IMG/VR virus record: IMGVR_UViG_3300020577_013858
Length of the DNA: 20,000 bases
Direction: 5' to 3' (one strand)
Source: an uncultured virus (IMG/VR IMGVR_UViG_3300020577_013858)
Lineage: Duplodnaviria > Heunggongvirae > Uroviricota > Caudoviricetes
The first letter of the stretch is position 1; each line of letters starts with the position of its first letter. Below the pieces are notes generated by a model that saw nothing but the letters and a program-made list of their open reading frames with translations, had not been told where the DNA came from and did not search any database. Position numbers and translations under genes: made by a program. Below, piece by piece: positions 1-4,818 of the stretch.

Positions 1-204
1 TGTGCCGTGTGGGGTGTGGGTGTGGCCGGTGCTCCTCCGCAGCAGTGGGAGACGACGACGCTGGACGCCGCCGCCGCCACGTTGACCGCGGGGTCGGGCG
101 GATGGGTCGCGATCAACGGGTTGACCATCGGGGCGCTCGGGACGGATTTCGTCATGGACCTTCTCGACTTTCGACTCGCTTCGCAGCGTGCGGGCTCGCA
201 GTAG
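1..204 (+). CDS. 3' end of a hypothetical protein (5'-truncated by window; possibly late/structural)
   Basis: Frame 1 is open from position 1 to TAG 202-204 with GC3-rich codons; the stop overlaps the AGGAG SD of the next gene. Confidence 0.6.
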   Translation, partial: CAVWGVGVAGAPPQQWETTTLDAAAATLTAGSGGWVAINGLTIGALGTDFVMDLLDFRLASQRAGSQ

Positions 205-212
205 GAGACGCT

Positions 213-644
213 ATGGGATGGCTGGAGATCGTCGGTACGGGTGGTGCGGCGGCGGGCCTGACGGCGCTCGGTTCCGTCGCCAAAGAGGCTCTCGCGCAGC
301 ATCGCGCAAATCGCGAGTCGGCCGCGAAAGCGGCGCTCGACGCGCGCGTCGTCGAGGTCAAGGCGCGGCAAGATGGCGAGGTCGCGCAGAACTCGCATGA
401 AGAGGCGCTCCTCAATACGCTGGTGGGGCTCGCGCGCGACACGGCCACGCAAGCCGTCGCGCAAGCGGAGAAGCTGTCCACGGTCATCGTGACCGCTTCG
501 ACGGCGATCAACGGCCTTCAAGCCGCCATCGCCAACCTCCAACTCGATGTGCGCGCGATCGGCTCCAAAATCGACGCACTGGAAAATCGGCTCGACGCCG
601 CCGACCGCGCAAGCGGTGTCATTTCGCGGGAGAAGGTCTCATGA
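213..644 (+). CDS. Holin-like membrane-anchored coiled-coil protein (143 aa)
   Basis: AGGAG 203-207 then ATG 213; Gly/Ala-rich hydrophobic N-terminus MGWLEIVGTGGAAAGLTALGSVA followed by heptad coiled coil (INGLQAAIANLQLDVRAIGSKIDALENRL). Function inferred from architecture and position only. Confidence 0.5.
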   Translation: MGWLEIVGTGGAAAGLTALGSVAKEALAQHRANRESAAKAALDARVVEVKARQDGEVAQNSHEEALLNTLVGLARDTATQAVAQAEKLSTVIVTASTAINGLQAAIANLQLDVRAIGSKIDALENRLDAADRASGVISREKVS

Positions 645-1213
645 GCATGTTCGTCGAACAGTTCTTCGCGGATGTCGGCGCCGTGCGGGCGATGCAATCG
701 TCCGTGGTCGAGCGCATCGACGAGGCAGCGGCTCGAATGAGCGCGAGTCTTCACGGCGTCGAGCAGCTTCTCGTGCGGGACCGCGCGTCCTTTCCGACGC
801 TGCACCCGAGTGTGCTCGTGCTCGACGACGACCTGAACGCGGCAAACACGGTTGTGCGCGCGCTCAAGCTCGAACTGCCCGCGTACCTCCGCAATCTCAC
901 GGGTGCGTCGTCGTGGGCGTTCAAGGTGTCCGCAGAACATAACGTTGAGGTCGCACGTCACCGCGTCAAGGTGGAGGGCGTGTCCGTGGTCGTCGCGGAC
1001 TACTACCTTGAGAACGCGGGCATCTCCGGCGCCTCGTTCCTTCGTTCGCTCGACCGCGCGCATCGGGGCGTGCTCGTGTCGGGGATGGCGGCCGTCGAAG
1101 AGCTGCGCGAGCTCGGGCGCGCGGCCAACGCGCAGGTGTTCCGACGCCCGGTCACCGAGGGCGAATGGCAGGCGTTCATCGCGCACGTCGCGACCCTTCT
1201 CGCCGCACCCTGA
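641..1213 (+). CDS. Stand-alone CheY-like response regulator receiver protein with N-terminal helical extension
   Basis: VLVLDDD (D62-64), VVVADYYL (phosphoacceptor D120), ISG, LVSG (S147), FRRP at the conserved KP position; ATGA overlap with upstream gene; no output domain. Confidence 0.8.
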   Translation: MSMFVEQFFADVGAVRAMQSSVVERIDEAAARMSASLHGVEQLLVRDRASFPTLHPSVLVLDDDLNAANTVVRALKLELPAYLRNLTGASSWAFKVSAEHNVEVARHRVKVEGVSVVVADYYLENAGISGASFLRSLDRAHRGVLVSGMAAVEELRELGRAANAQVFRRPVTEGEWQAFIAHVATLLAAP

Positions 1214-1217
1214 ACCG

Positions 1218-2234
1218 TTACCGTTTCGTCGTGATCCACGCGGCGCGTTCCTTCGCGTTGCGCAAGCACGGACCCTGCGCGAGCACGTAGGACGCGAGGC
1301 CCCCGTCTTCGGCCTGTGCGTGTCGCAGCCGATCGAAAAGCCGATCTCCGAGCGCGCTGCGATAGTAGTGCTTGTGGACGTCGTCGCGCGTGAGGTTGCA
1401 GGTGACGAACGTCACGCGCCCGGCGTTGTAGCGCTCCAACAGCAGTTCCGTGATGCGCGTGGGGTCTTCTTCGGTCCCGAGGTCGTCGAGAAGCATCGCG
1501 CGCGCTTGACACCAGCGCTCCCACTCCTGTTGCGCCTGGAACCCGGTGCGTCGGTCGCGTGGGCCAACCCACGTTGCCGCGAGGTACACCGCGCTTTCGC
1601 CGCACGTGCGCAGGAGCACGTGCGCCGCCGCGACGGTCTTTCCGATGCCCTTCGCGCCCGACACGACGCGAATGCACGCGGCGCGGCGCGGGGTACGCCA
1701 CGCCCAAGCCTCGCGAAAAAGCCGCAGGGATTCCGACTCAGGGAGCCAATCGTCGTATGCCGGTTCGCGCACGTTCGGATCGCCCGGGAGGCCCATCGCG
1801 TTCGCGGTGCGCTCGTAGGCCGCGCGTCGACGTCCGACCTCCGCCTTGAGCGTCGCCCTGAACACCTCGACGAGATCGGAGCCGTTCCGGGGGAGACGAC
1901 GCACGATCGCCAGAAGGTGCTTCCATGCAACCGCGCGGGGTTCCGGTTCGACCGTGCCGAGCGCGTAGCGATGCTGCGTCCATGCCTGCACCGCGTCACC
2001 GAGCGTCCGCACGCGGCCCGCCTGGTCGTAGAACGCCGCCAACACCTCGGGGGTGTTCTCGGGGGCGCCGTGCGCGGGCACGAGTCGAACGGGTGTCGGG
2101 CTCGCAAGCAGTTGGGCAAGCAGCACGGGCACGCCGTGATGCTCGCCCGTGCGACGCGCAAGCAGACTCGCGTTGAGCTCGCGCTCATAGTCCGATCCGA
2201 AATCCAGCGTGCGTTGCGGGTCGTTGGAGCTCAT
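1218..2234 (-). CDS. DnaC/IstB-like AAA+ ATPase (phage replication helicase loader type)
   Basis: Walker A VVSGAKGIGKT, Walker B MLLDDLGTE, sensor TFVTCNL, LGDRLFDRL; start MSSNDP at 2234 overlaps upstream stop (ATGA). Confidence 0.85.
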   Translation of the reverse strand: MSSNDPQRTLDFGSDYERELNASLLARRTGEHHGVPVLLAQLLASPTPVRLVPAHGAPENTPEVLAAFYDQAGRVRTLGDAVQAWTQHRYALGTVEPEPRAVAWKHLLAIVRRLPRNGSDLVEVFRATLKAEVGRRRAAYERTANAMGLPGDPNVREPAYDDWLPESESLRLFREAWAWRTPRRAACIRVVSGAKGIGKTVAAAHVLLRTCGESAVYLAATWVGPRDRRTGFQAQQEWERWCQARAMLLDDLGTEEDPTRITELLLERYNAGRVTFVTCNLTRDDVHKHYYRSALGDRLFDRLRHAQAEDGGLASYVLAQGPCLRNAKERAAWITTKR

Positions 2235-2689
2235 TCGCCTTCGGTAAGCGCTTTCCCGAGGGCCTGGAGTTCCTCGCGAAGTCGGGCGTTCTCCGCCGTG
2301 AGGGCGTCGATGCGTTCGCTGCGAAGCGTCGCAAAGTCGCACAGTCTCATGCGCTCCTGCATGAGCTTGTCGAGGTCGCGCGTGAGTTCGGTGATACGTT
2401 CGGCGCGATCCGCCGAAAGGCCGCGCAGGCTCGTGTGCTCCTGCGTGAGCTTCTCGAAACGTTCTTGCTCGACCTCGCGGGTCGTCTCCGAAGTGGAGAG
2501 CTTGAGTTCGAGTTCGCGGATGCGTGCCCGAAGAATCTCGGTCGATTCTGAGGCAGGCATGGTCACGGGAAGAACCCGCTCGATATACTCCCGCTTGACA
2601 CTCGCGCGGGGCTCTCCGTCGGTCGAGGTGTGGTTCGCGAGTGCAGCGGGGTCACGGGTCGTGTTGCTGGAAATCGTTGAGGCTTTCAT
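2231..2689 (-). CDS. Coiled-coil hypothetical protein (152 aa)
   Basis: ATG 2689 overlaps the stop of the HTH gene; long heptad E/R/L-rich C-terminal half (LRARIRELELKL...LTAENARLREELQAL). Confidence 0.75.
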   Translation of the reverse strand: MKASTISSNTTRDPAALANHTSTDGEPRASVKREYIERVLPVTMPASESTEILRARIRELELKLSTSETTREVEQERFEKLTQEHTSLRGLSADRAERITELTRDLDKLMQERMRLCDFATLRSERIDALTAENARLREELQALGKALTEGE

Positions 2690-2991
2690 GGACGGCGTTC
2701 CTTTCGCGTGGCGTTCACTGCGCGCTCGACTCGCGCACGGGCGTGCGGCGTGCGAAGGCTTCGCACGCCACGATAGGGGGTTCCGTCGCCCGCGCCAAGC
2801 CACGCGAGCGAGCAGCGAAAGACGCGCGCGAGGGCGTAGACGGTGGCGAACGAAACGTGCGGGTGATCCTTCGCCCGAAGGGCGTAGAGCTGCGCGCGGG
2901 AGAGGCCCGAAAGCGCGGCGATCTCGTGCTCGGGTCGAGTGAAGCGCGCGGCGCGCGTGAGCGCCGCAAGGCGTTGGCGGAGCGTGCTCAT
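2686..2991 (-). CDS. XRE/Cro-C1-type helix-turn-helix regulator (101 aa)
   Basis: MSTLRQRL...EIAALSGLSRAQLYALR...VSFATVYALARVFRCSLAWLGAGDG is the typical XRE pattern; GAGGAG SD upstream; ATGA overlaps at both ends. Confidence 0.8.
   Translation of the reverse strand: MSTLRQRLAALTRAARFTRPEHEIAALSGLSRAQLYALRAKDHPHVSFATVYALARVFRCSLAWLGAGDGTPYRGVRSLRTPHARARVERAVNATRKERRP
2747..2769. promoter_or_regulatory. Palindrome copy 1: GGCGTGCGAAG-G-CTTCGCACGCC, inside the XRE gene
   Basis: Perfect 11-bp arms; same core as 13174-13190 and 17011-17026. Confidence 0.6.
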
Positions 2992-3164
2992 CGGCGTCTC
3001 CTCGCGATGGCGCCCTCGCGCTTGCACCTCATGCACGTGTCCCGTGCGCAGGAGGTGTTGGTGTTGAAGACGAAGCCGCACGCGCGGCATTCGATCTCCC
3101 GCGCGTGGTAGAGACCGAGGTCGTCGTCGATGTGACGACGCACGAGAAACAGGGGGTCATCCAT
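2988..3164 (-). CDS. Small Zn-ribbon protein (58 aa), absent from the ORF track
   Basis: Hand translation MDDPLFLVRRHIDDDLGLYHAREIECRACGFVFNTNTSCARDTCMRCKREGAIARRRR*; CxxCG...CxxC; stop overlaps XRE ATG; ATG lies 7 nt after a -10 box. Confidence 0.75.
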   Translation of the reverse strand: MDDPLFLVRRHIDDDLGLYHAREIECRACGFVFNTNTSCARDTCMRCKREGAIARRRR

Positions 3165-3971: not shown

Positions 3972-4090
3972 GCGCTTGCTGCACTCGTGCTCTCAGGCTT
4001 TGGGTTCCGGTGATCGCACGCATCTGCGCGCGGGTTTCCGGGGAGGCGCGTTGCGCGCTCGCGCTGCGCAGGTGCGAGGGATGCTCATGA
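3968..4090 (+). CDS. Small Cys-rich ORF (40 aa), absent from the ORF track
   Basis: GTG 3968 and TGA 4090 give 4-nt overlaps with both neighbours; VSACCTRALRLWVPVIARICARVSGEARCALALRRCEGCS. Confidence 0.5.
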   Translation: MSACCTRALRLWVPVIARICARVSGEARCALALRRCEGCS

Positions 4091-4818
4091 GCCACGCCTT
4101 CACCCGCTTTGCGACCGAAGCGGTCACGCACGCGCGACCGCCCCATGCGTTCGACACGGCGCTCGCGCGGGCGATCGGAGACGGCTCTGTCCCGGTCGTG
4201 GCGTTGGTGCGTGTGCTTCTCGACGCGCCCACGACGGACCCGTGGACCGACACGCGGAACATGGCGCTCGCCCATGTCGCGGCGCATCCCGAGCTGGCCG
4301 TGTCCGTGCTCGCGATCGGCGCGCAGGTGCTCGCGGATTGGCCCGAGCCGACGTACACGTTTCAAATGCACGGTGACCCGCATTGCGCGCGCTTTCAGTG
4401 CTTCGCGTGCCTTGCGATCGGAGGCCCAAGCGCAGAAGGCGGCTTCGTCGAGCGGGTTCACGGGACGGGCATCGGTCGCACGAAGCACGAGGCCAAGCAG
4501 CGCGCGTCGGTCGATCTTCTCGCGCGCGTCGCGCGACTGGCGGTGCCCGAGGTCGAGGTCGCGCCCGCGAAGTCTTCGCCGCCCGAGGTGACCGACGCCG
4601 ACCCGATTCAGGCGCTCTACCATTGGTGCAGCCGTCGCGCGCTTCCCGTCGTGCCTGCGTTCGCGTTCGCGATCGAAGGGCCGCCCCATCGCGCGGAGGT
4701 GACGTGCCACTGTCACCTGCACGGGTTCCCGCACACGTCGGGCAAGGCCCGCACGAAGCAGGGTGCGAAGCGTGCGGCGTGCGAACTCATGCTCGCGACG
4801 ATTCGAGGTGCGACGTGA
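4087..4818 (+). CDS. Tandem double-stranded RNA-binding domain (2x dsRBD) protein, 243 aa, no RNase III domain
   Basis: Repeat 1 AVSVL...PEPTYTF..HGDPHCARF.C...GIGRTKHEAKQRASVDLL; repeat 2 DPIQALYHWC...P.FAF..EGPPHRAEVTC...GKARTKQGAKRAACELML; both carry GxxH loop and KxxAK helix motifs. Confidence 0.85.
   Translation: MSHAFTRFATEAVTHARPPHAFDTALARAIGDGSVPVVALVRVLLDAPTTDPWTDTRNMALAHVAAHPELAVSVLAIGAQVLADWPEPTYTFQMHGDPHCARFQCFACLAIGGPSAEGGFVERVHGTGIGRTKHEAKQRASVDLLARVARLAVPEVEVAPAKSSPPEVTDADPIQALYHWCSRRALPVVPAFAFAIEGPPHRAEVTCHCHLHGFPHTSGKARTKQGAKRAACELMLATIRGAT

Follow-up and report, generated by a model that had tools for sequence, protein, structure and literature searches.

A receiver gene that overlaps a coiled-coil gene in an uncultured virus: a possible split signalling accessory of a lysis module

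At the end of a rightward gene unit in an uncultured virus, a gene for a receiver-domain protein overlaps one for a coiled-coil protein with a hydrophobic N-terminus. Both lie in the window, a 20,000-nucleotide stretch that forms the final 20 kb of a 70,592-bp record (G000; 68% GC, completeness 99% by CheckV). The reading that we favour, as plausible though short of probable, is that the pair is a two-part, membrane-tethered receiver accessory of a lysis module, through which host phosphate would bias the timing of the membrane lesion. The arrangement itself recurs in other phages and has been annotated in print, with no explanation for it found in the literature searched; new here are the N-terminal helix of the receiver protein, the loss of a conserved Lys, the split form and the occurrence in an apparently tailless virus. 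Both genes are real and not artefacts; a codon model fitted to the long genes of G000 classes each of them as coding. The predicted ATGA start/stop overlap (641–644, + strand) is present in the sequence and again in a contig assembled from run X1, which equals window bases 1–3000 with zero differences and may itself be source data; this overlap would couple translation of the two genes. As the original prediction had it, the receiver gene is the last of the unit: the convergent gene for a DnaC-like helicase loader (1218–2234, − strand) ends at 1218. Neither a sigma-70 promoter nor a terminator was found in the rightward unit.

The 190-aa receiver protein (641–1213, + strand) taken alone scores below the curated cut-off of Pfam Response_reg (PF00072; E 0.03, 14.9 bits against 30.2). 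Relatives were recovered from a search of 1.84 billion representatives, which returned eight proteins of 162–183 aa plus one spurious repeat protein, and from a profile search, which added six more and one generic receiver; the family alignment (A2) left out the repeat protein (P0008, 773 aa) and a generic receiver used as an outgroup (P0035). All 16 members of this alignment match PF00072 at E≤0.1, and the alignment matches 77 PDB sequences at E≤0.001. An AF2 model built on it (pLDDT 90.2) has a helix at residues 2–50 followed by a (β/α)5 core, and Foldseek ranks receivers first, 3dge_C among them (TM by target 0.82). The model thus bears out the forecast of a helical N-terminus of about 50 residues joined to a receiver domain, and the gene encodes a true receiver fold of the CheY class. 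Two single-sequence attempts were set aside: a PDB search that returned one chance match (E 0.56) and an AF2 model that was unusable (pLDDT 45.6).

The receiver domain (803..1213, + strand; residues 55–188) carries the D62/D63 acidic pocket, the phospho-acceptor site D120 and S147. These residues, together with R169-P170, all align to canonical receiver columns, in agreement with what had been read from the DNA, and the conserved Lys that precedes Pro after β5 is replaced by R169. An insert after helix 1, forecast at about 12 residues, was found to comprise 10–13; it lengthens helix 1 to residues 65–87 and is private to the 190-aa protein (1/16 members). The N-terminal helix (641..790, + strand; residues 2–50) is soluble and heptad-like and is a candidate docking helix; it finishes with an L-x-x-R-D motif that recurs across the family. 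An N-terminal extension of 42–76 aa occurs in 15/15 members checked, with a maximum Kyte-Doolittle value of 1.15. Single-protein viral scans for this N-helix family confirmed no relative, and a search with a DNA pattern of the family had 0 viral matches and three genome matches, one of them a generic receiver and two without a match to the family HMM. At least 21 weak, apparently generic receivers were met in a metagenome scan (9/64 parts).

The upstream partner, a 143-aa protein (213–644, + strand), has AGGAG 7 nt before its ATG. It had been described as a membrane-anchored coiled coil, of which the second half is well founded: residues of about 100–129 form a coiled coil with L/I/V at 8/8 a/d positions. 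The anchor is less secure, since the hydrophobic segment (residues 4–22) is rich in Gly and Ala and has a Kyte-Doolittle mean of only 1.25; basic residues follow it, and we regard the predicted membrane segment as marginal. With a long, helical body between the two ends, the architecture appears holin-accessory-like. The further description of the gene as holin-like found no support in family matches: the protein is a singleton with no homologue (0/5 related records) and with no holin match in Pfam, PHROGs or NCBIfam; PF10874 is likewise absent. Its nearest Atlas neighbours, phage hypotheticals (0.89) and DUF2746 (0.87), serve as leads only.

Four further overlapping genes precede the pair, in a unit where 4-bp overlaps are common. 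They encode, in order, a 406-aa protein with a hydrophobic N-terminus, an internal lipobox-like motif and a Cys-rich domain (G000 C1:47745–48965), a 245-aa HExxH protein (C1:48958–49695), and proteins of 116 and 253 aa that look beta-rich and stand directly upstream of the pair. The motif before the Cys-rich domain is one that we take to be lipobox-like. The gene of the 253-aa protein (C1:50035–50796, + strand), whose 3′ end occupies window positions 1..204, has no match in Pfam, PHROGs or NCBIfam. A tRNA-Met(CAT) lies at C1:47069–47142, just before the unit.

In related phages, two genes of this unit stand in a tail-to-lysis region. A receiver scan led to G001 and an HExxH scan to G001–G003, while G004 and G005 were added through a fusion scan; an HExxH DNA pattern retrieved no phages beyond G001, G003 and G004. 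The receiver is present in three of the four records reached through HExxH. These are tailed phages: G001 has terminase, portal and major head matches, baseplate matches occur in G002 and G003 (with portal and sheath matches in G002), and G004 and G005 are homologous to the other three. In four of them (G001, G002, G004 and G005, whose contig ends inside the gene) the receiver is fused to a hydrophobic hairpin, and because of this Rosetta-stone pattern we read the G000 pair as a membrane-tethered accessory. The fusion proteins of G001, G002 and G004, of 191–200 aa, have a Lys-intact receiver and PF00072 scores above the cut-off (33.8, 45.9 and 48.3 bits), and the fusion receivers reach 69–81 bits on the family HMM, against ≤56 for other receivers in the fetched loci. 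Homology between the hairpins and the 143-aa protein was not shown: a profile of the former fails to match the latter at E≤10. A tblastn search with the G002 fusion found no match in 50,697 GenBank phages, a set that includes the distant receiver of Alteromonas phage R8W.

A single origin of the fusion receivers and the N-helix family is plausible from the trees, in which the fusions group with the N-helix proteins at 98/95 and 96/100 after 3/38 rows (two long branches and one near-duplicate) were left out. With all 38 rows the group stands at 90/97 and takes in one long-branch generic row, and a quick run on 37 rows with the long branches gave a support of 47; the trees have few outgroups, and their in-group was selected on similarity.

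Gene order in G001, G002 and G004 runs from tail genes through a small and a larger beta-rich gene (the latter a Laminin_G_3 match in G002) to the fusion; then come a holin-like/lipoprotein, an HExxH and an M15-like gene, and in G001 and G002 also an SLT-like gene whose product is hydrophobic at its N-terminus. In 4/4 phages the fusion comes straight after the last beta-rich gene of the tail region, except that a 38-codon remnant separates the two in G001. Homology to the 406-aa and 245-aa genes of G000 was established for the relatives' lipoprotein domain (E 5e-10 to 7e-8) and HExxH protein (E 3e-34 to 1.5e-30), and both genes were shown to be present in three of the four fusion-bearing phages. 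The fusions thus stand before lipoprotein and HExxH genes that have homologues upstream of the G000 pair, and before an M15-like gene, a position that favours placing the pair in a lysis module. Homology of the two beta-rich G000 genes to those of the relatives was not shown (253-aa protein: probability 0.6%), so that for these two genes a shared slot is an analogy. The M15 matches in the receiver-bearing relatives (E 2e-4 to 1e-3) and the SLT match, in G001 only (E 0.013), are below cut-off. The last gene of the G003 cassette encodes an endolysin with an Amidase_2 match above cut-off, a 71-aa two-TM gene occupies the receiver's slot, and the cassette has no receiver, which indicates that the receiver is dispensable. 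The lysis-cassette setting that had been proposed has partial support: in its favour are the lipoprotein and HExxH genes of the relatives' tail-to-lysis region, the fused receivers and the layout of R8W, and against it stands the lack of recognised endolysin or tail genes in G000.

Several features of these cassettes deserve mention in their own right. The 38-codon ORF before the G001 fusion (L029:6281–6397) begins with a match to the 71-aa two-TM gene of G003, suggesting that the fusion may have displaced a gene of that type. In four viruses a holin-like hydrophobic N-terminus and a Cys-rich lipoprotein domain are fused, with a lipobox-like signal internal to the protein between them; at this place G003 has two genes, one small and hydrophobic and one for a lipoprotein. 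Besides the G000 gene, the lipoprotein genes lie at L029:7052–7822, L030:9219–9944 and L038:11484–12242, and also at L032:9448–9950. The fused form is possibly an unusual outer-membrane lysis component. The HExxH protein (also L030:9941–10609, L032:9947–10609 and L038:12846–13475) has no Pfam or PHROG match, and its gene always adjoins lipoprotein and candidate endolysin genes, making it a candidate for a new lysis-associated metallopeptidase.

The receiver could instead be a decoy for host signalling, a late-expressed auxiliary gene whose product would drain a host phosphorelay or block it (in motility, development or envelope stress) and which rides with the tail-lysis module while leaving the holin untouched; we consider this doubtful, though a serious contender. 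It would agree with the lack of a kinase. The original prediction that no kinase is near proved correct, as HisKA has no match on G000, no kinase family appears among its called genes, and HATPase_c is found in 0/5 relatives' records (fragments 25–77% complete); no cognate kinase for the receiver was thus found on the 70.6-kb record. Retention of the Asp and Ser with loss of the Lys would suit a phosphate sink, and G000 encodes a second host-signalling gene, for a PP2C-type Ser/Thr phosphatase (C1:7646–8401). The cassette region also accepts unrelated cargo, as a D12 adenine methylase, a Tad2-like anti-defence gene and DUF6527 are inserted in that of G004 (L038:10600–12852), and in the parts of PMC10579305 and PMC7289586 that treat them the CheY-like genes of Alteromonas phages are read as class II auxiliary genes. 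A decoy does not account for the tie, by fusion or by ATGA, between the receiver and a holin-slot membrane protein in seemingly separate lineages.

Conservation within the N-helix family bears on a further alternative, that the domain is blind to phosphorylation in this lineage and serves the membrane protein as a constitutive partner, antiholin-like or structural, which we judge unlikely. The Lys site of the 14 N-helix members in the tree reads R in eight, T in four, I in one and K in one, so that loss of the Lys is a family trait (13/14), and one member lacks the Asp residues as well; by comparison, the Lys is kept in 3/3 full-length fusions and 21/21 other receivers. The private insert after helix 1 and the sub-threshold Pfam score of the 190-aa protein are in keeping with such a scaffold. 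Set against it, the acidic pair (13/14), the phospho-Asp (13/14) and the Ser/Thr (14/14) are kept at identities to the query of about 25–34%, and the Lys persists in the fusions. Because the phospho-Asp and Ser/Thr are retained in this way, we prefer to read the domain as a phospho-receiver.

Among the 91 genes of G000 called with the codon model, no convincing match to terminase, capsid, tail, holin or endolysin families was obtained from Pfam or PHROGs, nor any to a spanin family, and a six-frame search for Terminase_6N was empty. Structural matches were confined to a portal (E 0.004) and an adaptor (E 0.006), and no stretch of either match passed. Endolysin and tail genes, for which inspection of the upstream sequence had been advised, were accordingly not recognised anywhere in the record. 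A minus-strand block (C1:13000–28000; L001, L002) encodes many small hydrophobic and C-terminally anchored proteins, a 551-aa protein (C1:22447–24102) and a P-loop ATPase with Walker A/B-like motifs (C1:24556–25611), while no terminase, portal or tail was recognised on the record; the block resembles, we infer, that of a tailless, membrane-containing virus. The candidate capsid protein and the ATPase had no informative PDB match and no phage match. Tailless-looking as it is, G000 has envelope genes in common with tailed phages. A 362-aa C-terminally anchored protein of the block (C1:15330–16418, − strand) contains a Glu-x-Gly-Leu-Phe-Gln motif, presumably of the kind seen in lysozyme-like folds; it is a candidate virion muramidase, and a PDB search with it gave no significant match. 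A tRNA-Arg call at C1:18268–18364 overlaps a protein gene and is doubtful. Three very large genes fill C1:28096–46707, for a 1298-aa protein with a 2H phosphoesterase/Acb1-like domain, a 2637-aa protein without a family and a 2266-aa DarB-like methylase-helicase, and window positions 4087–4818 (+ strand) encode a protein with two dsRNA-binding motifs. The host is probably Gram-negative; two of the relatives have weak MXAN_6577-like matches (E 2e-5 and 3e-4), which fall far short of the cut-off and hint at Myxococcota.

That the unit is a host-recognition or envelope module, with the receiver a hitchhiker paired by chance, is improbable: it would suit the lack of recognised endolysin and holin in G000, the two beta-rich genes without a family directly upstream of the pair, the frequent 4-bp overlaps and the counting of an Alteromonas CheY-like gene in a host recognition module in the relevant part of PMC10579305, but homologues of the lipoprotein and HExxH genes adjoin the above-cut-off amidase in G003 and the membrane-plus-receiver arrangement recurs.

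Returning to the tethered accessory of a lysis module, we envisage the 143-aa protein as a holin-type helper that would be inserted N-out/C-in in the inner membrane and whose coiled coil would hold the N-terminal helix of the receiver, rebuilding the tether made by fusion in the relatives. Host kinases or acetyl-phosphate could then phosphorylate D120, and the phosphorylated receiver would bias when the membrane lesion forms. Since most N-helix members are without the Lys, the G000 receiver would most likely act as a partner that can be phosphorylated but switches weakly, serving at the membrane as a brake or phosphate sponge. The change to Arg speaks against a fully canonical switch in the G000 copy, where switching is likely blunted, and the Lys-intact fusions could be true switches. 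This reading is weakened because the 143-aa protein lacks a homologue and has a marginal TM segment, and because no holin, endolysin or spanin was matched in G000; the sub-threshold M15 and SLT matches, the receiver-free cassette of G003, the cargo in G004, the loss of the Lys and the tree support of 47 weigh against it as well.

Lysis timing sets burst size, and its known controls, antiholins and T4 lysis inhibition among them, work, to our knowledge, without Asp phosphorylation. If our reading is true, tying a receiver to a holin-type protein would connect host signalling directly with the lysis clock, and the genes labelled "PhoB/CheY auxiliary genes" in cultured Alteromonas phages would have to be re-read. 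The locus adds a comparison of fused with split forms, a sub-family that has lost the Lys, and a module common to tailed phages and a virus without recognised head or tail genes. On our best reading, a receiver accessory was recruited to lysis modules more than once. A bolder version, which we think rather unlikely, is that phages repeatedly wired an orphan phospho-receiver to membrane proteins of the holin type, either by fusion or as a pair docked through a coiled coil, to form a lysis timer gated by phosphorylation and reading the two-component state of the host, and that an apparently tailless virus took the module from tailed phages with which it shares a host and divided it into an anchor and a docking receiver. 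No proposal of a phage receiver as a lysis regulator was found in the literature searched, which is not proof of absence; the terms "receiver" and "response regulator" do not occur in the main text of a myxophage preprint (10.64898/2026.09.14.751636).

Stand-alone receivers of the PF00072 family, such as CheY, DivK and Spo0F, share with the G000 protein the (β/α)5 fold, acidic pocket, phospho-Asp, Ser/Thr and Pro, and the lack of an output domain. The G000 receiver differs from them in its Arg for Lys, 50-residue N-terminal helix and lengthened helix 1, in being viral, and in that no cognate kinase was found. The same substitution in CheY, K109R, is described in the pertinent part of PMC3203184, which cites Lukat 1991, as phosphorylated yet without signalling. 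In T4 lysis inhibition, holin T, of N-in/C-out topology, is controlled by the antiholins RI and RIII, and superinfection is the signal. The G000 pair has no detectable sequence or fold link to this system, whose signal is not Asp phosphorylation. An outline of antiholin and lysis-inhibition control in part of PMC13056207 has a soluble partner bind the single-TM holin and delay lysis on a signal. The same source describes the LysF1b (DUF2746) proteins of mycobacteriophages, which have one N-terminal TM segment, predicted N-out/C-in, and a long helical tail, are ATGA-coupled in the cassette, and are needed for efficient lysis. Such one-TM proteins aid lysis, DUF2746 comes up as a weak Atlas neighbour for the 143-aa protein, and the latter resembles them in its helical tail, its ATGA coupling and, marginally, its hydrophobic N-terminal segment; they lend weight to a place in a lysis module. 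The 143-aa protein differs in lacking a PF10874 match, in its weak TM segment and in a host that is probably Gram-negative, and LysF1b is presented without a receiver partner in the sections of PMC13056207 concerned.

The nearest parallels come from cultured Alteromonas phages, in which CheY-like or "PhoB" genes place a receiver at the tail-fibre/lysis junction, as in the relatives of G000. The CheY-like genes V22 gp30 (rank 8 in our viral fold search) and A5 gp11 are class II auxiliary genes of a shared host recognition module in the corresponding parts of PMC10579305 and PMC7289586, and V22 gp30 lies two genes after a papain-like amidase (PMC7289586, in part). R8W g48 is named a PhoB-like auxiliary gene in PMC8228385, and these receivers are described, in the relevant portions of the three papers, as auxiliary metabolic genes without a link to lysis. 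In R8W the order is tail fibre gp45, an annotated class II holin gp46, gp47, the receiver gp48 and a hydrophobic gp49, with ATGA overlaps on both sides of gp48. Its gp47 is a 98-aa protein with one TM segment and a coiled-coil-like tail, whose Kyte-Doolittle value of 2.40 (at residue 6) contrasts with 1.25 in the 143-aa protein. As in G000, a gene whose product has a hydrophobic N-terminus and a coiled-coil or coiled-coil-like tail is joined by ATGA to a receiver, here after an annotated holin, and this succession also leads us to the membrane-tethered reading. The proteins themselves differ: gp48 has the receiver first, a C-terminal helix and the Lys, in place of the N-terminal helix and Arg of G000, and its 19.7 bits on the N-helix family HMM, under generic receivers, suggest that R8W recruited its receiver separately. 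With a like layout and a culturable host, R8W makes the idea testable now.
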